Translations under genes and position numbers: made by a program
The notes under the pieces: generated by a model
The model's input: the letters and a program-made list of their open reading frames with translations, nothing else
What the model was told of the DNA's origin: nothing
Databases searched by the model: none
NCBI RefSeq assembly: GCF_963921235.1
Contig: NC_086097.1
Location: 132,930,001 to 132,994,000, forward strand
Source: Mobula hypostoma
Taxonomy: Eukaryota
Length of the DNA stretch: 64,000 bases
Reading direction: 5' to 3'
Part shown: positions 4,595 to 55,619 of the stretch, in pieces
How the letters are laid out: every line of letters starts with the position of its first letter
How positions within the stretch are numbered: the stretch's first letter is position 1

Positions 4595-5215
4595 TGTTTC
4601 AATGGTTCCATTTAATATCAGAGAATGTATATATCAGTGAATGGACACAAGCTACAACCTGAAATTCTTACTTTTCACAGACATTCGCGAAACAGAAGAA
4701 AACCCCAAAGAATGAATCAGAGAAAAATCATTAGAACCCCAAAGCCCACCCACTCACCTCCCACACACAAACAGCAAAGTATCAACCCTCCCACTTGTTC
4801 CAGCAGGAAGAATCAACACTCACCACTCACTAAGCACAGCACCCAAAGAGCTGATGATTCACAGTCCAACAAAAACTACAGTTCATAACCCAACACTTTG
4901 ACATGCCACAAGCTCTCTCACTAACAAGGGACAGAGAGGTGTCCACATTCTACCACGAGAGAGAGAGACCAACAAACCACTATTTCAATGTTGCAATCTA
5001 AAGCGATGCTTATTTGAGCTCACCTGACTCGAGAACCAGCAGACTGTCCCCCACCCCCAATGAAAGAGAGAGAGAGAGAGAGAGAGTGATCGCCCGAGTG
5101 CAGAGGCCTCCAACAGCTGCACCCCTGTCTCGATGTTCCAATCTCCATGATGTTACAGTTGACAACACCGGTGAGAACCCCAGCCACTTTTTCCCTCTGG
5201 CACTATCTTAGCTCC
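4595..5215 (-). mobile_element. Non-autonomous retroposon with Rex1-like tail (family also at 16.9, 56.3 and 62.2 kb)
   Basis: ttcaatggttccatttaatatcagagaatgtata end shared with 16888-16925 and the reverse complement of 57030-57070; contains (AG)11 at 5065-5086. Confidence 0.55.
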
Positions 5216-17868: not shown

Positions 17869-20800
17869 ATCCCCGTCTCTTCTAAACTTCTGTTTTCTTG
17901 AAATAGCAGATGGCCATTAGAGTCAACCAGATTAAGAGACATACAAGAGCCAGATTGTGGCAGGTTAACATGGCAAAATTTTTTGCTGAGGAAAATTAAT
18001 GAATCAGACAGGTTTCAAATACTCAGCTGGCACCTAGACAAGCCTTAGGTCCGGATTCATATGATTATGATTAATTCCCCAGTTTCTATGATGGGCTTGA
18101 ACTTCGTTTCATAATCAATAGCCCAGAAATGTCAACAGCTAGTTTAATAGCTTAACCACTGCACTGCCATTCACCAGCAGCATTGGCTTTGCAGTATCCC
18201 TCTTGTTACAGGCTTATTAGTGAATTGTTCTGCTCGGAATACAGAATGAATAAAGAAATTACTTAATCCTGAAATTTAAATCTCAAAATCAGATATCATA
18301 CAAAGATACAGTATGTTATATGCAAGCATAGTCTTACTTAATCTTTACTGGTTAGATGCTATCTCATACAATTACAATGGAACACACTGAAGCATTAGAT
18401 AATGAATATCAAATCATAACTTCAGTCACAGAGCAATATGTTAAACACCGCAATTGCCAAATCTCTTCGATAAAATAGGCTTAAAGCCTTTCCTGGAAAG
18501 GATTGGGGGATTTTCAATCCAACTTATCAATATTCAAACCAAATCTATCTTCATCTGCCATTGATTAATGATTAATATATGTGGCATTAATGATTAATAT
18601 ATGTGGCATTGATTGTATATCCCATAATAAGCCTGAATGAGGAAATAGTTAAAAGTGAACCTCATTGGTGTGTTAGGAGTCCAAAGGTGGTCATATCAGG
18701 TAAAGACAGCAAATTTCCCCAAAGGATAACAGTGAATTAGATGGACTCTTATACCCATCTACTTTAATCTATTGAACTAGAAGCTGCAAATTCTGGGCTA
18801 CTGATCAAGGCATGTTGTTCAAACCCCCTGGAAGCAGAGGAATCTAATTCATAATCAAGTAAATCTGGAATTAAGGTTTGCCAATGGAGCAGCTGGGTCT
18901 TTGAAACCTGTATGATTTATTAAAGTTCTTCAGGACAGTAATCTACCATGTTTACCTGCCCCAGTATTGCTTTTATGTGACTCCAAATCTGTGCTTGTAT
19001 CTACTTACTGAGGGTAGATACAAAAGCTTGGGGACACAGACCACCAGCTTCTATCCTGCTGTTGCCAGATACTTGAACAATCTTCTTATACAATAAGATG
19101 AACTCTTCATCTTTCAATCTAGCTCAGAGTGGGGCTTGCCCTTTATTTATCCACCTGCACTTCACTTTCTCTGTCACTGTAATGCCATATTCTATTTTTC
19201 CCCTTTTGTACCACCATGATGTTCTTTAGTGAAAGCATCATCCGTGAAGTAAAACCATGTGAGCAGATACTGTTGTCCGCAACTGTGTTCTGCATACTGC
19301 AGCTGGACTACTAAACTGGGTCTATTTTAAATCCCCGTCTCTTCTAAATTTCTGGTTTCTTGGAATAGCAGATAGCCATTATCCTTTGTATAATTACAAT
19401 AGTTCTTCATCTCAAGGATATTAAGTTGAGCCTATTGTCATGTGCACAAATATGGTGAGATAGAGGTACAATCAGAAACTTGTTTGGAGCAACATCACAG
19501 ACACATAGATTTAGGCAAAAATACAACCTAAATATACATAAATTATACAAGATAGTGAAGAGAAAAAGACACATGTACAAAAACACACGCAATCAGAAAC
19601 AAATCCATCTTAGTGCAAGAGGTAGTCATTAGTGTTTCATTGCTAGGGTAGGGTTAGAGTTGTGCAAGTTGGTTCAGGAGCTGAATGGTTGTAGAAAAGT
19701 AACTGTTCCTGAACCTGGTGCCCTAGGACTTCAGACCTCTGTATTGCCGCCCAAGAATAGCAGTGAAAGGAGGGCATGACCTGGATAGTGCGAACTCTTA
19801 ATGATAGTTGGTGCCTATCGTGAGTGATGGGGCTCTTATAGGTGCTGTCAATGCCGGGGTAGGCTCAGCCCCTGCTGGACAGGCTGTGTTCATAACTCTT
19901 TGGAGCCTCCTGTATTACTGTGCATTGGAATTGCTGTACCAGGCCACGATATAACAAGTTAGGACACTTTCAACAGTTCACCTGTAGCAGCTTGTTAGAG
20001 TGTTTAGTGACACACCAATTCACCTTAAACTTCTTAGGAAATAGAGGTCCTTCCTGACTGGGGTACCTGAGCTAGACCCAATATCCCACAACTACCACTA
20101 GTTCATTTGTTGATGGAAGGGCTTTGTGATGAAGGACTCAAAGAGATTTAGGTTACACTTTTCTCATATTTACTCATAGGATCAGGCATTGTCATTGTGA
20201 ATCTCTGATCAGAGGAGACACTTCAGAGTGAACTAGATTAAGAGACATACAAAAGCCAGACTGGGGTAGGTTAACATTTCAAAATTCTTTCCTGAGGAAA
20301 ATTAATGAATCAGACAGGTTTCAAAAACTCAGCTGGCACCTAGACAAGCCTTAAGTCCAGAATCATTTGATTTCCCAGTTTCTATGATGGGCTTGAACTT
20401 CTGTTTCATGATCAATAGTCCAGAAATGTCAGCTGCTAGTTCAATAGTTTAACCACTACACTGCCATCCACCAGCGGCATTGGCTTCACTGTACACTCCT
20501 GTTTGAAGCTTGTTAGTGAATTGTTCTACTCAGAGTACAGAATGAATAAAAAAGTTAATTAATCCTGAAATTTAAATCTCAAAATCAGATATCATACAAA
20601 GATACAGTATATTATATGCAAGTATAGTCTTACTTAATCTGTACTGGTTAGGTGCTATCTCATACAATTACAATGGAACACACTGAAGCATTAGATAATG
20701 AATATAAAATTATAACTTCAGTTGCAGAGCGATATGTCAAACACCGCAATTGCCAAATCACTCTGATAAAATAGGCTTAAAGCCCTTCCTGGAAAGGATT

Positions 20801-21585
20801 GTTGGATTTTCAATATAGTTTTCCAATATTCAAACCAAATCCATCTTCATCTTGACATTATTTCTCTACAATTAATATATATGGCATTGATTGTATATCC
20901 CATAATGTCTGAATGAGGAAATGGTTAAAAGTGAATCTCATTGGTGTGTTAGGAGTCTCAAGGTGGTCATATCAGGTAAAAACAGCAGCTTTCCCCACAG
21001 GATAACAGTGAACTAGATGGACTCTTATACCCATCTATTTTAAGCTATTGAAATAGCAGCTTCATATTCTAGGCTACTGATCAAGGCACGTTGTTCAAAC
21101 CCCCATGGAACCAGAGGAATCTAATTCATAATCAAATAAATCTGGAATTAAACTTTGTCATGGGGGCAGCTAGGTCTTTGAAACCTGTATGATTCATTAA
21201 AGTTCTCTAGGAAAGAAATCTACCATTTTTACCTGCCCCAGTCTTGCTTTCAAGTGACTCCTAATCTGTTTTTGTATCTGCTTACTGAGGGTAGACACAA
21301 AAGCTTGATAACACAGACCACCAGCTTCTATCTTGCTGTTGTCAGATACTTGAACAATCTTCTTATACAATAAAGATGAACTCCTCATCTTTCAATCTAC
21401 CTCATTGTGGGCCTTGCACTTTATTTGTCTACCTGTACTTCACTTTCTCTGTCACTGTAATGCTATATTCTATTTTTCCCCTTTTGTACCACCATGATGT
21501 TCTTTAGTGAAAGCATCATCTGTGAAGTAAAATGATGTGAGCAGATACTGTTGTCCACAACTGTGTTCTGCATATTGCAGTTGGA
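17869..21585 (+). repeat. Tandem duplication of a ~1.45-kb unit
   Basis: Copy 1 about 17869-19305; copy 2 is 19331-19381 plus about 20226-21585. Long shared strings include gaggaaaattaatgaatcagacaggtttcaaa, ttaatcctgaaatttaaatctcaaaatcagatatcatacaaagatacagtat and gagcagatactgttgtcc. Confidence 0.92.
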
Positions 21586-24871: not shown

Positions 24872-25190
24872 TGATGTACTGTCAATAACTCCAAAAGACT
24901 GGAAGTAGAGTAAATACTGAAAGGCTTTTATTAGCAGTAAAATGTGACCTCCACCATGTTGAGTATCTGCCCCTGGACTGAGAGGAGGAGCAATGGCACA
25001 ATCGCCTTTATTCAGGGATCTGTGGGAGGAGCCACAGGAGCAGTCAGCAGAGGGGCATGTCCAGACAGGTAACCCAGTTACAACATATATATATGGTTTA
25101 CCACATTCACCCCTCCTTTATTTAAAAAAGAGTCCCGCGGGGTGAAGTGACTGACAATATTTAAAACAAGTATATTTACAGGTCAAGTCA
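24872..25190 (-). mobile_element. Gypsy-type 3' LTR (24872-25105) with polypurine tract and short internal remnant
   Basis: Minus strand: PPT aaaggaggggtgaa directly followed by TGTGGTAAACC...AATAAA...gtacatCA. Confidence 0.7.
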
Positions 25191-25194
25191 ATAT

Positions 25195-25700
25195 ATTGTA
25201 TTGGATTCTCTTTCACCACCTTCAGCATTGCACCTTGTGCTCTTGGTGTGATCTTTGCAGGATGCTCAGTCCTAGGGAGAATAGCAGCATGACTGATTTT
25301 CCTCCATTTGTAGTCAATTTCTCTTACTGTGGACCGATGAGTACTCCGGCCTTTAGAAATGCTTTTGTAGCCTTTTCCAGCTTTATGCATCTTTACAATT
25401 CTTCTTCTAAAGTCCTCTGAAAGTTGTTTTGATCAAAGCATTGAAGCATAAACAGATTTTTCTTAAGAAGAGCAGGCTCTGTCAGTAACCTGACTTTGTG
25501 TGTCTTTTTATAGGGCAGGGCACCTCTACAACGCACACCTCCAATCTCATCTCATTGATTGGGACATCTGACTCCAAATAGCTTTTGTAGAAGACATCAC
25601 CCAGAGGTTCACATAATTTTTCCAAGAAATACATGTAATATTGGATCATTTTTCTCAATAAATAAATGAACATGTAAATTGTTTTGGTATTATTTATTTA
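25195..25700 (-). mobile_element. Tc1-like transposon 5' fragment
   Basis: MHKAGKGYKSISK..RSTVREI.YKWRK..LPR..HPAKITPRAQ..VKENP, the Tc1 transposase paired-like HTH. Confidence 0.85.
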
Positions 25701-25719
25701 ATTGCACCCAAAATGGATA

Positions 25720-27331
25720 CAACAGGGCTGCACCTGAAGACCCTGTGATCTCTGTCTCAGGGTCCGATGTTAGACTGTCTTTAAAGAGAGTGAACCCTCG
25801 CAAGGCAGAAGGTCCCGATGGAATACCTGGTATGGCTCTGAAAACCTGTGCCAGCCAACGGGCGGGAGTATTCGAAGACATTTTCAACCTCTCACTGCTA
25901 TGGACAGAAGTTCCCACTTGCTTTAAAAAGCAACAATTATACCAGTGCCAAAGAAGAATAATGTGGGCTGCCTAAACGACTATCACCCAGTAGCACTCAC
26001 ATCGACAGTGATGAAATGCTTTGAGAGGTTGGTTATGACGAGACTGAACTCCTGCCTCAGCAAGGACCTGGACCCATTGCATTTTGCCTATCGCCACAAT
26101 AGGTCAACGGCAGACGCAATCTCAATGGCTTTTCACACGGTTTTAGACCACCTAGACAACACAAACACCTACATCAGGATGCTGTTCATCGACTATAGCT
26201 CAGCATTTAATACCATCATTCCCACAATCCTAATTGAGAAGTTGCAGAACCTGGGCCTCTCTACCTCCCTCTGCAATTGGATCCTCAACTTCCTAACAGG
26301 AAGACCACAGTCTGTGCGGATTGGTGATAACATCTCCTCTTTGCTGACAATCAACACTGGCGCACCTCAGGGGTGTGTGCTTAGCCCACTGCTCTACTCT
26401 CTGTATACACAAGACTGTGTGGCTAGGCATAGCTCAAATACTATCTACAGATTTGCTGATGCTACAACTATTGTTGGTAGAATCTCAGGTGGTGACGAGA
26501 GGGCGTAGAAGAGTGAGATATGCCAACTAGTGGAGTGGTGTTGCAGCAACAACCTGGCACTCAACGTCAGTAAGGCGAAAGAGCTGATTGTGGACTTCAG
26601 GAAGGGTAAGATGAAGGAACACATACCAATCCTCACAGAGGGATCAGAAGTGGAGAGAGTGAGCAGTTTCAAGTTTCTGGGTGTCGGGATCGCTGAGGAT
26701 CTAACCTGGTCCCAGCATACTGATGTAGTCATAAAGAAGGCAAGACAACGGCAATACTTTATTCGGACTTTGAAGAGATTTGGCATGTCAACAAATACGC
26801 TCAAAAACTTCTATAGTTGCACCGTGGAGAGCATTCCGACGGGCTGCATCACTATCTGCTATGGGGATGGGGGCTACTGCACAGGACCGAAAGAAGCTGC
26901 AGAAGGATGTAAATCTAGTCAGCTTCATCTTGGGTACTAGCCTACAAAGTACCCAGGACATCGTTAGGAAGCCGTGTCTCAGTAAGGCAGCATCCATTAT
27001 TAAGGACCTCCAGCACCGAGGGCAAGCACTTTTCTCACTGTTGCCATCAGGTAGGAGATACAGAAGCCTGAAGGCACACACTCAGCGATTCAGGAACAGC
27101 TTCTTCCCCTCTGCCATGCAATTCCTAAATGAATTTTGAAGCTTTGGACGCTACCTCTCTTTTTTTAATATACAGTATTTCTGTTTTTGCACTTTTTTAA
27201 ATAATCTGTTTTGATTTACTTGTTTATTTATTATTTTTTTTCTCTCTCCCTCTGCTAGATTATGTATTGCATTGAACTGCTGCTGAGTTAACAAATTTCA
27301 CGTCACATGATAATAAATCTAACTCTGATTT
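25720..27331 (+). mobile_element. Rex1/Babar LINE (RT to 3' UTR), lightly decayed
   Basis: ORFs 25679-27139: [87 protein letters not shown]. Confidence 0.93.
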
Positions 27332-27499
27332 TAAGAACCTCTTAGATGGGTACATGGAGCTTAGAAAAATAGAGGCCTATGTGTTAGGGAAATTCTAGGC
27401 AGTCTCTAGAGTAGAACACGTGGTCAGCACAACATTGTGGGCCGAAGGGCCTGTAATGTGCTGTAAATTTCTATGTTCTATGTTCAGAGCTTTTCAGGT

Positions 27500-29060
27500 C
27501 CCCAGAGGGACGGATAATTCAAACACATATAGAATTTCCCTCTAAAAGGGATTCTCTACCTCAAGTAGGGTGGATTTTTGACTGCATGACAGCAGTTGAG
27601 TACTGAAAAAGCAGAATTCTGGGAGGTAATCCAGTGACTGCAGTGTGAGTTGGCCTCTTTGTGTTCTCAGAACACCATGTGAGGTGAAACAGTGCGGGCA
27701 GCAGAGGAACGTGCTGAGCACTCTGAAGTTCAACAAATTATTGTGGCATGTAGATTGCCTGCCATTATGCAGAAGTGTTATATACAGCGCAGGACTGTAA
27801 AGGTCCAATCTGTGGTCCTGCAGGATGTTTGGGACCCAGATTCTTGGGATGGGGATATCTGCTATGATGATGATTTGGATGGGAATGAAAACAATGTAGA
27901 GGCACACGTCCTTCCGGCATGTAAAAGTTAAAGAGGATCACACAAGTGCTAGCTAACAAAACCAAGCTGTACTGGCTGTCCCTACCACCACCAAGACCAT
28001 TATCTGCAACTACACTATCACTGAGTTACACTATATAGCCCAGCGGCTGTGTCAATCCTTGTCCACTGGCTCACCCACCTATGGGATTCAGAAGTGTCCC
28101 AACTGATTTCAATGTGCATGAGCTTATTCAGTTAGGGTCATTAAAGACAGATCCATTAATCCTGGCCTAAGTGCAAGCCAGTCAGGCTGACGGAGCTGAA
28201 AGCTCCCTATGGGCAGTGGTTATACATGTTGTCTGTGCTCACTACCCTACCCCTTTGAAGTGAAATGCGTCTCCTCATCACTGGAACCCCCACCCCCACC
28301 CCCGGAGGCTATTTCATGCCTCCATGATATGGCAATGCAATCTGCCATTTATAATAACAACTCCTTTAACTGCCCTGAGGCTGTCCCCTTTTCCATTGGT
28401 ATGTGCACCTGATTGAAGGAATCAGGGCCTTACAGTGGAAGGGAGACTTGCTAACTTTATTCAGGCCAGCTGAGTGTCGGACTGCTGCAGGGACTAGCAG
28501 TCTATTGGGCCAACTTGAAGGGTCAGACCTAGATTGGGAATGGGTGCAGTTTAAGGGTGCTTATACATCCTGGAAGCAGCAGGGGCATATTGGGCGCAAG
28601 ATGAATGGAACTAGGAATACCACAAAGCAACTGATGACTGTGCCCCAGCAGTCAGTATCAAAGAGCCCCTCTTCCCATCTTAGTAGAAAAGATTTTTTCT
28701 GTTTGTACTGACGGCAGGACTAGATAAGGAAAAAAATTGATGGTGCACCTATTGGCATTTTTTATCTCTTATACAATGAGCATAGTGACCCAGGTGGGTT
28801 GTATTCTATAGCTCGTACAAAGGGACCAGTCACTCTACCTGCATGTAATGTTAATCCCAAAAAGAAGGACATTCCCCAGTTACATCTGGACTTGCATGAA
28901 TTGGACCCTGGTTGGCTCTGCATTACTGAACCTGTTGCCTAGGGATATGGCTGGGTCTCTGGGTCTGCCGCAATTGCTATAAGGGCAATTCATATTCCCA
29001 GTGTTCCAGAGGGAGACCTGACGTCATATGTGGTCTATGATATGCAGCAATCAAGTGGTA
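27500..29060 (+). mobile_element. Decayed ERV-L/Fv1-like (class III endogenous retrovirus) gag relic
   Basis: Collinear motifs VGWI..(coiled coil)..EERAEHSE..TVKVQSVVLQDVWDPDSWDGDIC (27830-27859), YTITELHYIAQRL, HWLTHLWD, ELIQLGSLKTDP, EAISCLHDMAMQSAIY..PEAVPF; several stops and frameshifts. Confidence 0.72.
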
Positions 29061-29224
29061 ACTAAGAGTCATTTATCCAGTAGTCTTTGTGCCTTGCGGA
29101 AATCTTTGTGACTTGCTATGTAGCATATTGTATGATTTGTCGTGCTTGTACGCTTATTACTACATCTCCTGGACACTTAAAAAGTTGGATATGATTAACC
29201 CAGCCCATTACTGCTGAGGACTAA

Positions 29225-29712
29225 AGACCAGTGCTGATCAGCAGGCTGGAGTGCTCACCAATATCTTCAACTTCTCACTTTGGCAGTCTCAAGTACCCAC
29301 CTGCTTCAAGTAGGCTTCAATTATACTGGTGCCTAAGAAGAATGTGGTAACCTGCCTCGATGACTATCATCCAGTTGCACTTACATCCACTGTAACGAAG
29401 TGCATTGAGAGGTTGGTGGTGAATCATGCCAAATACTGCCTGAGAAGCAACTTGGATCTGCTCCATTTTGCCTACAATTACGACAGGTCAACAGGAGATG
29501 CTATCTCATTGGCTCTGGAACTCTGGAACAGCTGGACGGTGACGATGCATACATCAGGATGCTCTTCACTGACTAACGTTTGGCAATCAGTACTACCATT
29601 CCTTCAAATCTAATTAATAAGCTTCGAGACCCAGGCCTCAGTACCTCATTGTGCAACTGGATCCTCAATTTCCTCACTGTCAGACCCTAGTCACTTCAAA
29701 TTACCAACAACA
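29225..29712 (+). mobile_element. Rex1/Babar RT fragment
   Basis: [40 protein letters not shown]. Confidence 0.85.
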
Positions 29713-29799
29713 TTGGCAATTGATAAGAGTCCATAAGACATTGACACGTGGCAGTTTGATGTTTTGAGCAGCGGCCAATTGGAAATCCAAAGCATGAGA

Positions 29800-32530
29800 A
29801 GATGTAGCTAACTCATCTATGTTTTTCCTTCTTTATATTTGCTCATTTAGAACAGTAGGAATGCCAGGCAGGATAGTTGAAGGCTCTTCTTGCTGGATGT
29901 GTGAAGGCAGGGAGACCTCCAGCGACCATGATGACTACAATTGCGAGAAGTGCAACTAGCTGCAGCTTCTAACACACCACATTAAGGAGTTGGTGCGAGA
30001 ACTGGTTGGACTCCAAATCATTTGGGAGACCGAGGGCATGGATCAACACATGAAGTTATCATATTTTGGGCATTAGTGAGACTTGATCGCAGAAGGGACA
30101 GGACTGACAGCTCAGTATTCTGGTGTTCCGTTGTTTCAGATGCAACGGAGTGGGAGGGATTGAGGAAGGAGGCGTAGTATTATTAGTCAGGGAAAATGTC
30201 ACAGAACTGTTCCGTCAGGACAGACAGGAGAACCTGACTGGCAAGGCAAGGTATGTCACATCCGGAATTATTTCCAGTTAGCGGACGATTTCCTTCCACG
30301 CTGCTCTGACGTACTGGGAAATCACGTATGAGGCAAGTTACAGCAGTGGTTTGCCATTGCCTTCTGCCAGGTGAGTTTTTTTTAAGAGATCACCAGCTCT
30401 TACCAGGAGCTGGCTGGATTCAAACTCGGGACCTCTCGCCCCGAAGTCCAGCGCTGATGCCACTATGCCAGCAGCCGGCCAGAACTTGACTAGTGAGGTG
30501 TAATGGGTGGAACCGAGAATAAAAATGTACGACCATGTTAATGGGGCTATACTACATGCCACCCAACAGTCTATGGGATTTAGAGGAACAAATTTGTAAA
30601 GAGATCACAGACTGTTGCATGAAACGTAAGGTTGTTTTTGTAGGTGGTTTTAACTTTCCACATATTGACTGGCACTGTCATCCAAAGAACTGGATGAGAT
30701 AGATTTTGTCAAGTGGGTTCAGGAATGTTTTCTTAACAAGTACGTAGATGTCCCGATGACAGAGTGTGCTATACTTGGTCTGCTATTAGGAAATGAAACC
30801 AGGGTAGGTGACAGAATTTTGTGATGGGGAACACTTTGCACTTAGTGATCATTATGACATTGGTTTCAAAGTAAATATGGAAAAAGAGATAGGTCTGGTC
30901 CATGGGTTGAGATTCTAAATTGGAGAAAGGCCAATTTTGATGGAATCAAAAAGGATTTGGCACTTGTGAAATAAAACAGGCTATTTTCTGGCAAGGATGT
31001 ACATGGTAAGGAGAAGGCCTCCAAAAGTGAAATTTTGAGAGTACAAAGCTTGTATGTGCCTGCCAGCATAAAAGGTAAAGATAACTGGTTTAGCGAACCT
31101 TGGTTTTCAAGAGATATTGATGCTCTGAATAAGAAAAAAAAAAGGAGGTGCATAGCAGGCATAGGCAAGTAGCAACAAATGAGGCACTTACGGAGTACAA
31201 GAAATGCACTTCACTTAACAAAGAGATCTGGATAGCTAAAAGAAGGCATGAGGTTGCCTTAGCAGACAAGATGAAGGGGAATCGTAATGGGTTCTGCAGA
31301 TATATTAAGAGCAAAAGTATTGCTAGGGACAAAATTGGTCCCCTGGAATATCAGAATGGTAATCCATGTGTGGAGCCAAAAGAGATGGAGGAGATCTTAA
31401 ATGGATTTCTTGAATCTAAATTTACTCAGGACATGGACACAGAGTCTATAGAAGTGAGGCAAAGCATCATCAACTTCATGGACCCTATACAGATTACAGA
31501 GGAAGAGGTGTTTGCTGTCTTGAGGCAAATTAGGGTGAATAAATCCCCAGGGCCTGACAAGGTGTACTCTTGGACCCTCTGGGATTCAACTGCAGAAGTT
31601 ACAGGGCCCTAGCAGATATATTTCAATCATCCTTATCAACAAGTGAGGTATTGGAGGATTGGGGGATAGTTAATATTGTTCTCCTGTTTAAGATAAACCA
31701 GGAAATTATCAGCCAGTGAGCCTGACATCAGTAGCGGGAAAGTTATTGGTAGTTATTCTAAGGGACCGGTTATATGAATATTTGGATAAACAATGATTGA
31801 TTCGGGATAGTCAGCATAGCATGTCTAACCAATCTTATAGAGTTTCATGAGGAAGTTACTGGGAAAGTTGATGAAGTCAAGGCAGTGGATGTTGTCTACA
31901 TGGACTTTAGTCAGGCATTTGACAAGGCCCCGCATGGCCAAGAAGGTTCAGTCACTCAGCGTTCATGATGAGGTAGTAAATTGGATTAGACATTGGCTTT
32001 GTGAGTGAAGCCAAAAAGTGATAGTAAATGGTTGCCTCTCTGATGGGAGTGCTGCAGGGATCAGTGCTGGGTCCATTGTTGTTTGTCATCTATATCAATG
32101 ATCTAGATGATAATGTGGTTAACTGGATCTGAAAATTCGCAAATGATACCAAGATTGGGGGCGTAGTGGACATTGAGGAAAACTATCAGAGCTTGCACTA
32201 GGATCTGGACCACCCGGGAAAAGGTCTGAAAAATGGCAGATGGAATTTAATGCAGAGAAGTGCAAGGTGTTGCACTTCAGTAGGTCCAAATAGGTCCACT
32301 TCGGTAGGTTGGTCTTATACGGTGAACGGAGTGCTGTAGAACAAAGGGATCCTGGAATACAGGTCCATAACTCCTTGAAGCAGGGTCACAGGTAGACAGG
32401 GTCATAAAGAAAGCTTTTGGCACATAGGCCCTCATAAATCAAAGTATTGGGTACAGGAGTTGGGACATTCTGTTGAAGTTGTATGAGACCTTGGTGAGGC
32501 CTAATTTGGAGTACTGTGTGCAATTTTAGT
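29800..32530 (+). mobile_element. CR1 LINE (ORF1 zinc-finger remnant, APE, RT), decayed
   Basis: DDYNCEKC (about 29930), GGFNFPHIDW (about 30640), WIAKRRHEVALADKMK.N..FCRYIKSK, KSPGPD, AVDVVYMDFSQAFDK, QGSVLGPLLFVIYINDL, KFANDTKIG. Confidence 0.9.
30240..30480 (-). mobile_element. tRNA-derived SINE with RTE-like tail (copy 2, internally deleted)
   Basis: Reverse complement matches 1626-1880 (tggcatagtggcatcagcgctggacttcggg..gagtttgaatccagcc..cctggcagaaggcaatggcaaaccactgctgtaacttgcctc). Confidence 0.8.
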
Positions 32531-40414: not shown

Positions 40415-42879
40415 GTTTAGAGGGATATAGGCCAAGTACAGGAAATTGCATTAGCTTAGATAGACAACTTGGTTGGCATGGACTTGTTGAGGTAAGGGGC
40501 CATTTTCCGTTCTGCTTAACTCTACGAATCTAAGTTTAAGCACGAGACAGAGCAGGATGTTCCAACTGCTTCTGCCCGTAATCCCATCAAGAAAAACCTC
40601 TGAACAGTTGGATTTGTATGCTCCTATCTTTTGATCATAATGCCACTCCAATAACAACAATGATAATAGTGAACCCTTAGACAATGGGACAATTGTACAG
40701 CCTGCAACCCCTTTATCCACAAAACTGTTTGGATTCAAGGGATATTCTGAAAAACTCATAGATTTAAACTCAGCAAGCAATTTAAATGTTAGTTCCATCT
40801 ATAATTCCATGGATTCTGCCTGGTCTGCTAAGTATTTCCAGCATTTTCCATTTTTGTTTAAGATTTCCAGCCTCTGCAGTTTATTTTTCATCTTCCTCCT
40901 GGAGTTACCAATGCTTATGGATACCCTGTGGATATGTCAGTGTTTGGGAGACCAGTGGGTTGGAAGGGGATGTGTGTGCCAGCTGCTGCAGGGCACCATT
41001 TTCTGCCAGTTGGGAATGTGGGAATGGGGCATTTCCATGTGCCTTCTCTATCCATTCTGCCACCACCTCCCCCCCGCCCCCCCGCTTCCCGCTTCATCTC
41101 CTGTAACAGTGAGGGACCTGGAAGAGCTGAGCAGAGCTGGAAGCACAGAGCAGAATAACTCGCTCACACACTGACTCACTGTGGCCAGCTGGTGGCTGTT
41201 CTTCCTGCACACTGTTTCTATTCATTTCCGGCAGTTCTTGAACATTTCAGGCTACAAGCAGTTCTCAGGAATAAACCCTGTCGTAACTTGTGACTCCCTG
41301 TACTATGCAAGCCAATCAATAAAAAAGCCATTTCCACTTTCCAAGTATTGTACAGCCTTCGAATGTTTAAACCATCTGCTCATTTTTTTTCCCTCCCAAA
41401 CCAGAGTTAAGAGTGTGACCAGTTGATATTTTTTCCCCAAGAAGTTAATTGCCAGGTGCAGTGCTGTATCCAAATTTTACAAGCATTATTTAATGATGAC
41501 AATTTTTTTAACAGTGAAGATGAAGATCTGGGTCTCCAAGACTCAGGACATTGATTGTGTCAGGCCTGCACGTGCAACTCCTCCCATTCCCCACCCAGCT
41601 AATAGAAGTCACTTGTCACTCATTTCTAACTCATCAGTACAGCCCACTTAAACCCAGCTCTCATCCACTGTCCTTGTTCACTCATCCAACTAGCCAGCCT
41701 CAACCACTTGCTCCTAGCTTTCAGTTACCTTATTGTGTTTAGCACCTGTTCGCTCTTGTTTTGAGGCTGCTCGTAGCTTGCTATTTTGCAGTTTATAATT
41801 AAAGATATTGTTCACTGATAAATCATCTCCCCTGCTCTGCTTTTGGGTCAAGCCTCCTCTACGTTTCCCAACGGGATGAATGAACCCTTGGTTGATCCAG
41901 AGGAGTATGATCATCCAAAGCAAGTTGTCCTCCAACATGAGTCCACCATGCAGGAACAGCAGGGGACCATTGACCATCATCTCAACCAACTCTCTGTCTC
42001 GATACTGCGGCCCCACGCCAGTCAAACTCCGCCTTCACAACCCTAGATTCCAGTGCCTGAGGGAGCTCCAACCCAATTCTGCAACTTCCTGCCCCAGTGC
42101 ATCTTATGCTTTGAGCTCCATCCACCACTGTGTTCAACAGACTTAGCCAAGATTGCCTTTGTCTGAGCGATCTTTCCCTTGACTGAGCGAGCTCTGACCT
42201 CTGCCGCCGCTAACTGGGGAATAAATGCACCATTTGCAATAAATATGAGTATATCACCACCGAGGTATGCTTGGCTTTCAGATACATGGGAAGTGGAAGG
42301 TAAGCAGCGGATCGGTTACTTCACCTGCGTCCTGGCTCCCGCTCAGTGCTGGATTATGCCATGGAATTCCAGACCCTCACGGTAGAGTGTAGTTGGAATG
42401 CGGAAGCACTGCTGGCATGTTGGAGTGTTTGAAGGAAGAGCTGTCTACCCGAAGGATGCCCACCGACCTCAGAAGCCTCATCACTCAGGCCCTCTGTATT
42501 GACAAGCATCTTATGGAATGACCCTTCACATCATCAGCCAGAACCCAATTCCATTCCTGCAGGACCCTCATCAACAGCACCTCCAGAACCCATGCAGTTG
42601 GGGAGAGCTCTCTTAAAACCCCCAAAATTATGAGCGTCAATGGAGAACCAGCTTGTTTCTGAGGAGCAGTCAATCACCCATGTATCAAATAAGACCCATA
42701 AAACAAAAGAGCAGAATTAGGCCACTTGGGTCTGCTCCGCCATTCCATCATGGCTGATTTATTATCCCTCTCAACCTCATTCTCCTGCCTTCTCCCCGTA
42801 ACATTTGGCACCCTGACTAATCAAGAACCTATCAACTTCCACTTTAAATATATTGAATGACTTGGCCTCCACAGCTGTA

Positions 42880-45625
42880 CTGTCTAGGTACCACATCCGA
42901 TGCGGACGTTGGTGACCATAGTTTTCCATATAGATCTACCCCTCGTTCTTTGGATGACTTCCATTTCCTCGATGTGTAGCCACCTGGCTAGGCTTTTGAT
43001 GTACATATGCCAAGGCCTTCCTCTAGGTTTGCTCCCCTCAATCTTTCCAGAGAGTATGAGTTTTTCCAGTTCATCTTTCCGCATGATGTGTCCTAGGAAT
43101 CTGAGTTGTCTTTCTCTTATTGTTGGTATGAGTGATCGAACTGCTTGGGCTCTTCTGAGAACTTCTTCATTTGACGTGTGTGTGATCCATGATATTTTTA
43201 ACATTCTCCTGTAGAACCATAATTCAGCTGCTTCTAGTCTCTTTTCTATTACTGGGGAAATGGTCCAGCATTCACTTCCATAAGTCAGGATAGAATAAAT
43301 GTAGCACTGCATTATTCTGTTTTTAGTGTACATGCTCATCTTTTTGTCCGTTAATATGGTCTTCATTTTTTGGAAAGCTTCTTTCGCCATTGCTATTCTG
43401 TATTTGATATCTGTGTCGCACCTGCCATCACTTGTTATTAGGCTGCCAAGATAACTGAATTTGTTGACTTGTTTGATGTTTGTATTTCCAATCTTGATCA
43501 CACATTGTGGGATATTTGTCTCTCTGGAGATGACCATGCTTTCTGTCTTCTTGTGTTGACTGAGAGGCCTCTGCGATTACTTTCTGCTGCCTCTATAGTG
43601 AGTAGTTCTTGAAGTTTTGTTTCTGAGTCAACTATTAGTACGATGTCATCAGCATATCTGATGTTATTTACATTATGGCCTCCAACTGTGAATCCTTTGA
43701 TGTCTTTGATACTTCTCAAGATATTTTCACTATACAGGTTGAATAAGTCTGGTGAAAAGACACAACCTTGCCTGACTCCTCTCATGATATTCACATACTC
43801 ACTCACTTCTCCTTCTATTCTGATGGATGCTGACTGGTCCCAGTATAAGTTTCTTAAGAAACGTATATCTTTCCCATCTATGTCAGGTTCTTGAAGCATT
43901 TCCAGAAGATCTTGGTGTCTGAAGGTGTCAAAAGCTTTTGTACAGTTGATGAAACATAGGTAGGTGTGTTTTTGTACCTGGATGGCTCATTCACAGATCA
44001 TCTGTAGCATAAAAATTGCATTTCTGGTTCCAGCGTTTTCCACAAAACCGTATGGTTCTTTACTGATTTCTGGTTTTATACAGCGTCTTGCTCTCATCAT
44101 GATTACATTGAGAATAATTTTTGCCACGTGGCTCATCAGGCTTATTGTACGATGCAACTCACATTCTGTTGCTCCCTCTTTCTTTGGAAGTGTGATGAAC
44201 ACTGATTTACTTAAATCATCAGGTATGTCCCCATGATCATAGATTTCATTTGCTATTTCTTTTATTTTCTCTATTCCAAAGTCTTCTAAGGCCAGTTTCA
44301 TCTCAACAGCGATGTTGTCTGGACCAGTTGCTCTGTTATGTTTTGTTTCATTTATGGCTGCTCGAATTTCTCATTTTAGAATGCTAGGTCCTTCAAGATT
44401 CTTCTTTATGTTTGGTTTTTCTCCTCTTTGGTCTTCAAAAAGTTCTTTTATATATTCTGTCCATCTGTTTAGGATTTCCTTTTTGCTCACAATTAAGTTG
44501 CCGTCCTTTGCCTTGATGCATCCACTTGCTGAGCAAGGTAATTTCCCCGTTGGTTCTTTAATCTTACTGTGCATCAACTTTGTTCCAGGGTTATGGGTTT
44601 GTAGCATTTTTATCTCTGAGCACTTCTCATTTAGCCATCTGTTTTTAGTTTCTCTGCATTTTCTTTTTATTGTCTTATCAAGTTGTTTGTATTCTTCACT
44701 GTCTCTTGATTTGATGGTCTGTTTTTGTTGCATCAATTGTATTATATCTTCAGTGATCCATTTCTTACTTTTCCATTCTTTTGATGGGATAGTTTCTTTT
44801 GCAGTTTCAACCATGGATTCCTTCAGTATGTCCCAGGAAGGTTTGCCTCCTTCATCCTGCGACAATTGAAAACGGTTTATCACCTTGATTGTGTATTCTG
44901 TTTTCAGATGAGGGTTATTTTGTAGTTGTTGATGATCCAGTGGTTCTGATCTTTTTGGTTTCTTTAATTTTCTCATCTTCATTTTCATTTTGCAAATGAC
45001 TGGTATGTGGTCACTTCCACAGTCTGCTCCAGGGTAGCTTTTAGATTGAGTTATCCAGTTTTTGAATCCGTTATTGATTGTTATGTAGTTCCCATCTGGG
45101 CTTCTCCATGTCTATTTCCTTCTTGGATGTTGTTTAAACCAAGTGTTGGTGATTATCTGATTGTTTGTTTTACACCATGCTATAAGCTTTTCTCTTCTTT
45201 CATTTCTTTCTCCAAATCCCTGGTATCCAACAATATGGTCTTCTCTTCCCTCACCAACTTTTGCATTGAGGTCACTCATGACTATGATGGCTTCTTGTGA
45301 TTTGCATTCTTCTAGTACTTTGTCTAGGGAGTGGTAGAAGGCATCAATATCTTCCTCTGAACTTGCTATTGTGGGTGCATATATTTGGATGATAAAGATG
45401 TTGTTTTGTTGTCCTTTTAGTTTGATTAGCATCATGTTGTCTGAGATATGCCAGTATCCTAGCAGGCTCTTGGATGTTTCTTTGTCTAAGATGATTGCAA
45501 CACCCTTTTCATGTTTATCTCCACCAGAGTATATCATCCTGTAGTCATCTGATTGGAATACTCCAGTGCCTTTCCATCTTATTTCACTGTGGCCTAGGAT
45601 GCTGACTTCTAGCCTCTTCATTTCT
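42880..45625 (-). mobile_element. RTE-clade LINE (APE + RT), few lesions
   Basis: Successive ORFs 45112-45726 (ILGHSEIRWKG, HEKGVAII, IIQIYAPT, MSDLNAKVG, TNTWF), 43987-44301 (LPKK..C..HRTISLMSH..K, GTRNAIF), 43498-43899 ([21 protein letters not shown]) and 42884-43537 (FSYLGS, LTYGSECW, QLRFLGHIMRK, GSKPRGRP). Confidence 0.93.
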
Positions 45626-45680
45626 AACATTGCATTTGCCTTCCTCACCACCAACTCAACCTGCAAGTAATCCTTTAAAT

Positions 45681-45763
45681 CAGGGGTTCCCAAACTGGGG
45701 TCCACGGACACCTTACTTAATGGCATTGATCCTGGACATTAAAAAAAAGATTGGGAACCCCTG
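45681..45763. mobile_element. hAT micro-MITE (copy 3)
   Basis: TIR caggggttcccaa...ttgggaacccctg, 13 bp perfect. Confidence 0.75.
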
Positions 45764-53941: not shown

Positions 53942-54259
53942 TCACATATCAGTGCTGCAATTAGATGACACAACGTCTGTTGTAGTCCGAAGTTCCTTGA
54001 CTTGATTCGGAGGAGAGGTGTTTCGGACTTTGCACCTGAATACCTGCTTGTAGGATTTCCTGAAGTTTTCTGACAGGAAGGCGTAGATGATGGGGTTGAT
54101 GGAGGAGTTGCTGTAGGCTAGGCAGTGGGCGGTTATCCTGAAGATGTAGGAGGCATTGTTCAGCGGGAAGCTGCCGAACTCTGTCCACAGAGCAATCACA
54201 TGGCTGGGGAGCCAGGAGATGCAGAAAACCACGATCACCACCAGTACCGTCTGTGTAGT
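53942..54259 (-). CDS. GALR1: Galanin receptor type 1, terminal coding exon (TM6-ECL3-TM7-helix 8-C tail)
   Basis: Translation [76 protein letters not shown]...STDM* closely matches GALR1 exon 3 as I recall it ([47 protein letters not shown]) and includes NPxxY. Preceded on the minus strand by a polypyrimidine tract plus CAG (ttgttcccctctccccag, AG at 54261-54260), phase 0. 105 codons plus stop, the same as human exon 3. Paralog (1a vs 1b) not certain. Confidence 0.92.
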   Translation of the reverse strand, partial: [105 protein letters not shown]

Positions 54260-54290
54260 CTGGGGAGAGGGGAACAAGCAAAAAAGCAAC
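54260..54290 (-). promoter_or_regulatory. 3' splice acceptor of the GALR1 last exon
   Basis: Minus strand gttgcttttttgcttgttcccctctccccAG|ACTACACAG. Confidence 0.88.
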
Positions 54291-55619
54291 ATTAGGTCAA
54301 GTCAGGGTGGGATTACTGTCATACACATAAGTGCAGTGAGGTACAGGTATAATAAAAGGTTGTTTGCTGCAGCATCACAGCCAAATGGACAATGCACAGA
54401 CATAGGCAGTATGCATAAACGATATTAGATGATGAAGAAACAAAAAGATTGCATGAAACAAAACATCAGTGCAAAGAGCAGACAATCATAGACAAAATCA
54501 AAGTTGAGTTTATTGTCCTGCGTACAAGTGCATTTATACACAGGTGTGATGTAAAACTTACCTGCAGCAGCATCACAGGCACATAGCATCAGGGACACAA
54601 CATTCACAAAGGAAACATAAGTTCAACATAATTTACATACACAAATAGGAAAAATGAAAGCTTCATTGTAGTGCAAAGTGCTTGAGTGGTCACTGAGTTT
54701 CTACACTGAGGTAGTGATTAGGATTGTACCACTGGTTCAAGAATGTCATGGTTGAAGGGAAGTATTTGCTCTTGAACCTGGTGGTGTGGGAGTTCAGGCT
54801 TCTATACCTCCTGCCCAATGGTAGCTGCAGGAAGATGGCATGTTCTGGATGAAGGGGATGTTTGACAACAGTTGCTGCCTTCTTGAGGCAGTAGCTCATT
54901 TAGAAAACACCCAAAGTGAGGAGCGATCGATCAATCATGTGTTGGACTGGATCTATTACTGTCTGCAGCTTCTTACATTGCTGCACATTTAAATAGCCAT
55001 ACCAGACTATGATGCTAGCAGTCAGATACTATGCCCATGGTAGTACAAGAGGTGTTCCTATGCTGAGAAAGCATTATGGTTGTGCAGGTCGGTTCAAGAA
55101 CCTGTTCATAACCAGGCGTCCATGCTTGCTCCCACTTTCAGCTGCATAGACCCTGTCTCCTTCATCCTGCCACTGGAAGCCATGGCTTACGTAAAGATCC
55201 ATCATACCAATGTCTGCTGATATCTCATTTGCATTGGCGTTGCTCAGTAAATATATACTAGAAAGGGTTCCAAGTAGTAACTTGCATTTGTATAGTGCCT
55301 TTCACATCTCTTTTAGGACATCCCAACTCGCTTTTCAATTTGCATTTATGCAAGATCTTTCATATGAAAAAATATTCCAAGGACTTTTCTCGAAACCCAG
55401 CTAACAAAATCCGGTCCTATTTACTGGAACTACCTCTTCTTTTAGACGCTCCTTTAGCCTCTTGCATGCTTAAACCTTTGGTAAACCGTGGCACAGTTGG
55501 TAGAGCTGCTGCCTCACATCTCCAGCTGTCAGCGTGGTGTTTGCATGTTCTGTCTGTGACTGTATCTTTCTCCTCCAGGTGCTCTCCTTTCCTCCCTACT
55601 GTAAGTTCCACCTAGAGTG

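Follow-up and report, generated by a model that had tools for sequence, protein, structure and literature searches.

The window analysed here, a stretch of 64,000 nucleotides from the ray Mobula hypostoma, holds at 27486-29060 (+) a 1.6 kb locus with a broken retroviral gag and a likely start of pro, set between other repeats, which we read with a probability of about 0.9 as the neutral fossil of an ERV-L-related germ-line infection that spread to several copies, was truncated by repeats and decayed. In the history that we propose, a class III retrovirus of the ERV-L-related branch would have inserted into the germ line in ancient times and then multiplied to several genomic copies; LINEs and other repeats would later have cut both sides of the present copy, which would have decayed without constraint. 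Both the order of these events and the neutrality are what we infer from the locus as it stands. Judged by its sequence, the gag likely belongs to class III (clade Huo), within the ERV-L-related branch and as a relative of the whale-shark family Rh_ty_ERV3, and it is likely without protein product or function.

Layout and decay of the gag locus

The peptide strings from which the locus had initially been recognised are real: all 12 occur in the + strand translation, in the order given, between 27562 and 29032 and distributed over frames 1, 2 and 3, and 5 extra blocks were seen in the 3' half of the fossil (28439-28774). The locus and its flanks are organised as follows:

25670..27310 (+): upstream flank, a non-retroviral LINE reverse transcriptase (RVT_1 at 25927-26505, E 3e-26, with ALKBH8_N matches)
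27320..27485 (+): 5' flank, the 3' tail of a very high-copy repeat, which cuts the element short on its 5' side
27562..27931 (+): front of the fossil gag, interrupted by 4 stops and 1 frame change, with a coiled-coil region like the N-terminal half of Fv1 that closes at its 3' end with a WDP-x-x-WDGD block and an acidic stretch
27932..28400 (+): a linker plus a capsid-like region, interrupted by 2 more stops and by several frame changes
28401..28939 (+): rear of gag, in which the frame changes 2 times near 28700-28735; it carries LLGQLE and KIDG-x-P blocks but no Cys-His zinc knuckle
28940..28942 (+): in-frame TAG, where gag likely ends naturally, ahead of pro
28943..29060 (+): likely start of pro, ending before the catalytic motif; frame open to 29059
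29068..29720 (+): 3' flank, a short higher-copy repeat (about 29068-29220) followed by a second fragment of the upstream LINE type

Along the gag blocks we counted 8 frame changes and 7 in-frame stops; gag probably terminates naturally at the last of these stops (TAG 28940), which leaves at least 6 that are disabling. With both ends cut by other repeats as well, the copy is not intact, in agreement with the preliminary description. That description had also placed the gag-pro boundary near 29010, at the string EGDLTSYV, which is indeed present on the + strand; but gag more likely ends at TAG 28940, and EGDLTSYV (29009) then lies already inside the start of pro. The pro-like sequence that follows this TAG resembles, by eye, the stretch 3' of the gag stop in a bullfrog provirus. 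The equivalent of the major homology region (MHR) falls within 27932..28400 (+), where it is interrupted by a frame change near 28056. A zinc knuckle of the form CX2CX4HX4C is absent from the gag locus, the one match in the window being at 4880 (-), and decay could also have erased one. Neither blastn nor tblastx detected a second copy of the gag in the 64-kb window.

Relationship to class III Gag proteins

When the frame starting at 27578 (stops written as X) was searched by phmmer against 1,835,955,588 proteins (cluster representatives), a single match was returned, the whale-shark protein P0001 (XP_020392837.2, RefSeq name SDCCAG8), with E 1.6e-5 and 32% identity over query positions 21-123; tblastn of P0001 on the window matched 27638-27892 (E 7e-10). 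A frameshift-tolerant local score of P0001 residues 1-130 against 27451-29250 reached 137, the highest values in the controls being 48 (60 shuffles) and 45 (68 other 1.8-kb stretches). For residues 131-256 the same score was a weak 50, with control maxima of 42 and 47. The front half of gag is thus computationally established and the capsid half weakly so by P0001 alone.

In a whole-length protein search with P0001, at least 120 matches were listed and all of those listed were SDCCAG8; the SDCCAG8 proteins among them cover 52-61% of P0001, and the SDCCAG8 Pfam family begins only at residue 297. Residues ~117-250, for their part, are near-identical by eye to the rh_ty_ERV3 protein that Xu et al. 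2018 give in their consensus file (PMC6001957, supplement 7, in its accessible part). On the strength of this likeness and this coverage, the first ~255 residues are not SDCCAG8 but, by eye, a gag copy of the published ERV family Rh_ty_ERV3, probably caught within a chimeric gene model. Residues 1-296 comprise these ~255 residues of gag followed by a short piece with weak likeness to a LINE reverse transcriptase (E about 1), and they provide the Gag front that is missing from the published consensus. We considered a real gag-SDCCAG8 fusion, that is an exaptation, and rejected it: the gag part is found in no other shark SDCCAG8 among the matches listed, which, together with the LINE-like piece between the two parts, points to an automated chimeric model.

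Other searches with P0001 gave little. Pfam returned SDCCAG8-related and weak matches and nothing else, and a word-index search with residues 5-255 recovered P0001 itself alone among 1071 candidates (lengths 352-1120). With residues 4-252, a PDB sequence search found one coiled-coil match (E 1.2); the ESM Atlas (residues 5-255) yielded coiled-coil clusters below 0.9 and no named retroviral match. In a single-sequence AlphaFold model of residues 4-252 (mean pLDDT 46) the coiled coil alone was confident, and Foldseek with this low-confidence model gave 0 matches at E <=0.001, which is uninformative. As for the gag fossil itself, its front frame had 0 matches in a PDB sequence search, a word-index protein search retained 0 of 3173 candidates, and IMG/VR scans found no relative. 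Of 199 stretches in a metagenome scan, L001 alone passed; this GC-rich bacterial contig shares one short motif and was set aside as a chance match.

Comparisons with Rh_ty_ERV3, Fv1 and the frog elements were made by manual counts over hand-picked blocks, without E-values. Rh_ty_ERV3 is a whale-shark ERV family from Xu et al. 2018 (PMC6001957, S2 Fig and consensus file). Against its protein, 8 ungapped blocks of the fossil between 28011 and 28774 show 52/120 identities, a proportion biased upward by the choice of blocks by eye; those in the capsid region (27932..28400) score 5/15, 5/11, 6/12, 7/17 and 7/16, and those of the rear part 12/26 (28442-28519) and 6/14 (from 28733). LGQLE and KIDG each occur at least once in the consensus file, and the occurrences found both fall in Rh_ty_ERV3. 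From the coiled coil through to KIDG-x-P, the two Gags carry the same blocks in one and the same order, for the most part equally spaced; neither has a Cys-His box and both hosts are cartilaginous fishes. They differ in that the fossil has no pol and in their level of identity, which stands at 32% in the front part and about 43% in the hand-picked blocks. At about 30-45% identity, the ray gag therefore represents a lineage of its own and does not belong among the copies of Rh_ty_ERV3.

The resemblance extends to mouse Fv1. Positions 27683-27757 align ungapped with Fv1 residues 120-144 at 9/25 identities by eye, the WDP block matches residues 172-184 at 8/13, and the capsid blocks then follow in the same order (PMC3948346, supplement 1, in its accessible part); the Fv1 motifs cited in the preliminary description agree, on a by-eye reading, with this published protein. 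Collinearity by eye also holds with the MuERV-L/HERV-L Gag, in the portions available of Yap et al. 2014 (PMC3948346) and Yedavalli et al. 2021 (PMC8278194, Fig. S6), the blocks in common being a coiled coil ending in RL, WDP-x-x-WDGD, W-x-x-x-x-WD, LG-x-L-x-x-D, SL...PT and PE-x-VP. Fv1 is nevertheless intact, exists as a single host gene and stops behind the capsid part, whereas the fossil is broken, continues to a gag stop and pro, and is multi-copy.

Among aquatic hosts, the African bullfrog class III ERV and XtERV-S (PMC8278194) have an ERV-L-related Gag like that of the fossil: a by-eye translation of the bullfrog provirus (supplement 5) shares QVGW, LLGQLE and IDG-x-P with it. In XtERV-S, gag and pol lie in one frame split by a stop, and the pro of ERV-L lies in the pol frame (PMC8278194); the frog class III ERVs have gag and pro in one frame across a stop, and in the fossil the in-frame TAG at 28940 with the putative pro start behind it would fit this layout. 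ERV-L and XtERV-S Gags have no Cys-His box (PMC8278194, Table 2). The fossil is a truncated piece, whereas the elements from frogs are close to full length and carry LTRs, pol and a class I-like env. The WDP block is not clear in the bullfrog Gag but is common to the fossil, Fv1, the whale-shark copy and the killifish element No_fu_ERV1, which, in the accessible part of the same 2018 data set, has the same Gag layout as Rh_ty_ERV3 (PMC6001957).

The initial identification of a class III gag fossil of ERV-L/Fv1 type is thus upheld by the phmmer match to an Rh_ty_ERV3 copy, by the frameshift-tolerant score and by collinearity, by eye, with Fv1 and a frog Gag. Could the locus instead be the gag of another LTR element, Gypsy, epsilon-like or snakehead-like, whose likeness to ERV-L is coincidental? 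Gag is poorly conserved, the locus offers no pol anchor and no library gave a named match, all of which would suit such an origin. Set against it are the collinear ungapped blocks shared with three independent class III Gags, and the MHR: in a published alignment (PMC8278194, supplement 6) the ending W-x-x-R/C-x-W-D/E appears in 7/7 class III rows and 0/16 class I/II rows, and the fossil retains the W..WD half at 28067, with H for R. The full consensus Q-x3-E-x4-hydrophobic-x2-R had no match in the window, its first half being broken by the frame change. Two patterns picked post hoc have a single occurrence each across all six frames of the window, in both cases at the gag locus: WDPxxWDG, expected 0.0 times per shuffled window, and W-h-h-[RHC]-x-W-[DE], expected 0.05 times (20 shuffles). 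Further, rh_ty_ERV2, printed beside snakehead retrovirus, has, in the available part of the consensus file, a Gag that differs from this one and bears a Cys-His knuckle (PMC6001957), and Pfam found nothing under E 0.16 in the three frames of the locus, with no Gypsy or class I Gag match. We consider a coincidental likeness very improbable. Returning to the class III assignment, the locus has no pol, so membership of the ERV-L-related branch is drawn from the published tree position of Rh_ty_ERV3; in S2 Fig the labels at the head of the clade Huo block read, in order, Rh_ty_ERV3, No_fu_ERV1, HERVL, Nan_par_ERV9/Murine_ERVL and HERVS (PMC6001957), a sequence of labels and not a topology. The branch is defined by a reverse transcriptase that groups with HERV-L, MuERV-L and HERV-S, and ERV-L in the strict sense by a dUTPase behind integrase and no env; our assignment of the fossil goes no further than the branch.

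Flanking repeats and the missing remainder of the element

Where pro-pol would be expected stand the repeat and the LINE of 29068..29720. No DTG/DSG protease motif occurs in the six frames of the window, nor do catalytic motifs of a retroviral protease, reverse transcriptase, RNase H or dUTPase, the sole YxDD lying within a LINE, and loose integrase patterns match outside the gag locus only. Pfam detected no retroviral pol, integrase, protease or dUTPase in the 103 stop-free frames of at least 55 aa between 21 and 38 kb (386 in the whole window), a search that short broken pieces could escape, and no protease or retroviral pol domain in 28990-30000 with stops as X. A flanking direct repeat (LTR pair) was absent among the 20 largest of the 31 repeat families in the window, and a Leu-type primer motif was matched 2 times against 5.4 expected by chance, both ends of the element being cut by other repeats. 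On the 5' side, the tail at 27320..27485, which we take to be that of a CR1-type LINE, reaches a summed depth of 1e5-1e6 in three runs, with loose ends behind 27485. The LINE at 25670..27310 is presumably Rex1/Babar-like; its second fragment, at 29263-29692, is 69% identical to 25880-26312 (blastn).

The repeat at 29068-29220 is present as a single copy in the window, with a summed depth above that of gag in three large runs, and may either belong to the element as its 3' part or be a repeat unrelated to it. The latter would make the locus a variant of the fossil reading, in which a gag-only, non-autonomous, MaLR-like derivative of an ERV-L-type virus carries from about 29068 its own 3' part or LTR. 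Such a derivative would account for a pro sequence that ends before the catalytic motif and for the excess depth over 29068-29270, as solo LTRs would give; the same 3' junction is also bridged by one contig from another organism (organism B below, 28660-29138). But 29060-29230 has no second copy in the window, no obvious purine tract precedes the repeat, and the stepwise climb of depth into the LINE fits nested unrelated repeats, depth not being equal to copy number. We hold this variant to be unlikely, though the least so of the alternatives, and retain truncation of an ERV-L-type element by unrelated repeats.

The window contains further elements. A rhodopsin-family GPCR (7tm_1, E 7e-11), which we assume from its resemblance to be galanin receptor 1-like, has its last coding exon at 53942-54301 (-); the gag fossil lies about 25 kb downstream of this exon. 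A Tc1/Sleeping Beauty-type transposase fragment (HTH_SB, E 1.6e-13) is found at 25118-25432 (-), and sequence is locally duplicated between 17919-19307 and 20225-21585 (87-92% identity, period about 2.3 kb). Judged by its translation, 41700-42700 (-) may hold the decayed gag of a different LTR retrotransposon, presumably Gypsy-like and unrelated to the ERV-L-like gag, and at 42884-45738 (-) a near full-length RTE-type LINE extends over several frames, with an endonuclease and a reverse transcriptase bearing YADD.

Copies in other organisms and place among known families

Sequencing reads were compared for 4 of at least 18 runs matching the stretch, over 27300-29330 and at a likeness threshold of 80%. 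None of the runs listed as matching was of RNA, which is no evidence on expression. Among the contigs listed, three organisms yielded a close copy, 0.8-2.6% different in organism B (e.g. 12/875), 5-6% in organism C (22/379) and 7-9% in organism D (67 differences plus 19 gap letters over 941). The same three runs hold a second class of contigs, 15-20% different, an upper end set by the 80% threshold; up to 9 (B), 16 (C) and 13 (D) contigs lie over a single site. Organism H (X15) matches gag at 27497-27668 and over a short stretch near 28300, and organisms E-G and I had small word shares with the stretch. One near copy per organism together with several copies at 15-20% indicates an old multi-copy family, and we read the close class (1-9%), from its sequence, as the putative orthologous insertion and the 15-20% class as probable paralogues. 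Contigs of B and D enter the 5' flanking repeat by 26-27 letters, below the bar of 31 letters, so that a common 5' junction is suggestive at most. If the copy in D is orthologous, a divergence of 7% would make the insertion at least about 16 million years old at a mammalian rate, or about 160 at the shark rate of Han 2015 as given in the part of that paper available (PMC4422223). The spread of the family is older than this minimum age of the insertion.

Near-identical copies in three other organisms might also be expected of a host gene, and Gag co-option is frequent in vertebrates, with 177 gag and env events given in the accessible text of one survey (PMC8922424). Could the locus then be a once-domesticated, Fv1-like gene that is now a pseudogene? 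The disabling stops and frame changes run over the full length of gag, where an intact frame at a single locus was not found; a gag stop and a pro start are retained, the family is multi-copy, and CpG is as depleted at the locus as in the remaining window (0.19 vs 0.25). Past domestication is hence, in our estimate, highly unlikely, and a neutral fossil of a multi-copy retrovirus stays the preferred reading. A bolder scenario, in which the ray family and Rh_ty_ERV3 are two ERV-L-type arms predating the shark-ray split and an intact, antiviral gag copy elsewhere in the ray would be a convergent Fv1, seems to us improbable.

The preliminary description had further supposed a deep or undescribed aquatic class III lineage. 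This supposition is not supported: the sole relative in the databases is one copy of Rh_ty_ERV3, a family already published, No_fu_ERV1 comes from the same 2018 data set, and, in the available part of Blanco-Melo et al. 2024 (PMC11089739), clade III accounts for 2843 RT loci across 6 genomes of chondrichthyans, the majority of the ERV RT loci reported. Since a related whale-shark family was published in 2018, the ray gag adds a member and not a new kind; ERV-L-type Gag in sharks and fish is already in print, and the ray lineage is likely a new member of this known group. Clade Huo is described, in the parts available, as infecting all major vertebrate lineages (PMC6001957, section 7; PMC8922424). 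The accessible text of the 2018 screen names whale shark, elephant shark and little skate among its hosts (PMC6001957); Le_er_ERV5, the sole legible skate label in the S2 tree text, stands among the clade Mu labels, four further skate families being unreadable there. Epsilon-, snakehead- and foamy-like elements have been reported from these fishes (Naville and Volff 2016; Han 2015, PMC4422223; PMC10699275), with no ERV-L-like one in the available portions of these papers. The literature, as far as it was accessible in full or in part, held no description of an ERV-L-like family in rays; Repbase, Dfam, Wang and Han 2020 and the mobulid genome preprint lay outside its scope and could hold the family.

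The published picture, with clade Huo in all major vertebrate lineages, is unchanged by the ray locus. Pfam has no model that catches a Gag of this kind, and screens based on reverse transcriptase would miss copies that lack pol. Should the copies found elsewhere prove truly orthologous, the locus would set a minimum age for the infection. With this locus the known range of the ERV-L-related branch likely grows beyond sharks to include rays, whose lineage would be the second in cartilaginous fishes and well diverged, and the Fv1-type layout of its Gag has been kept, block by block, from sharks to mice.
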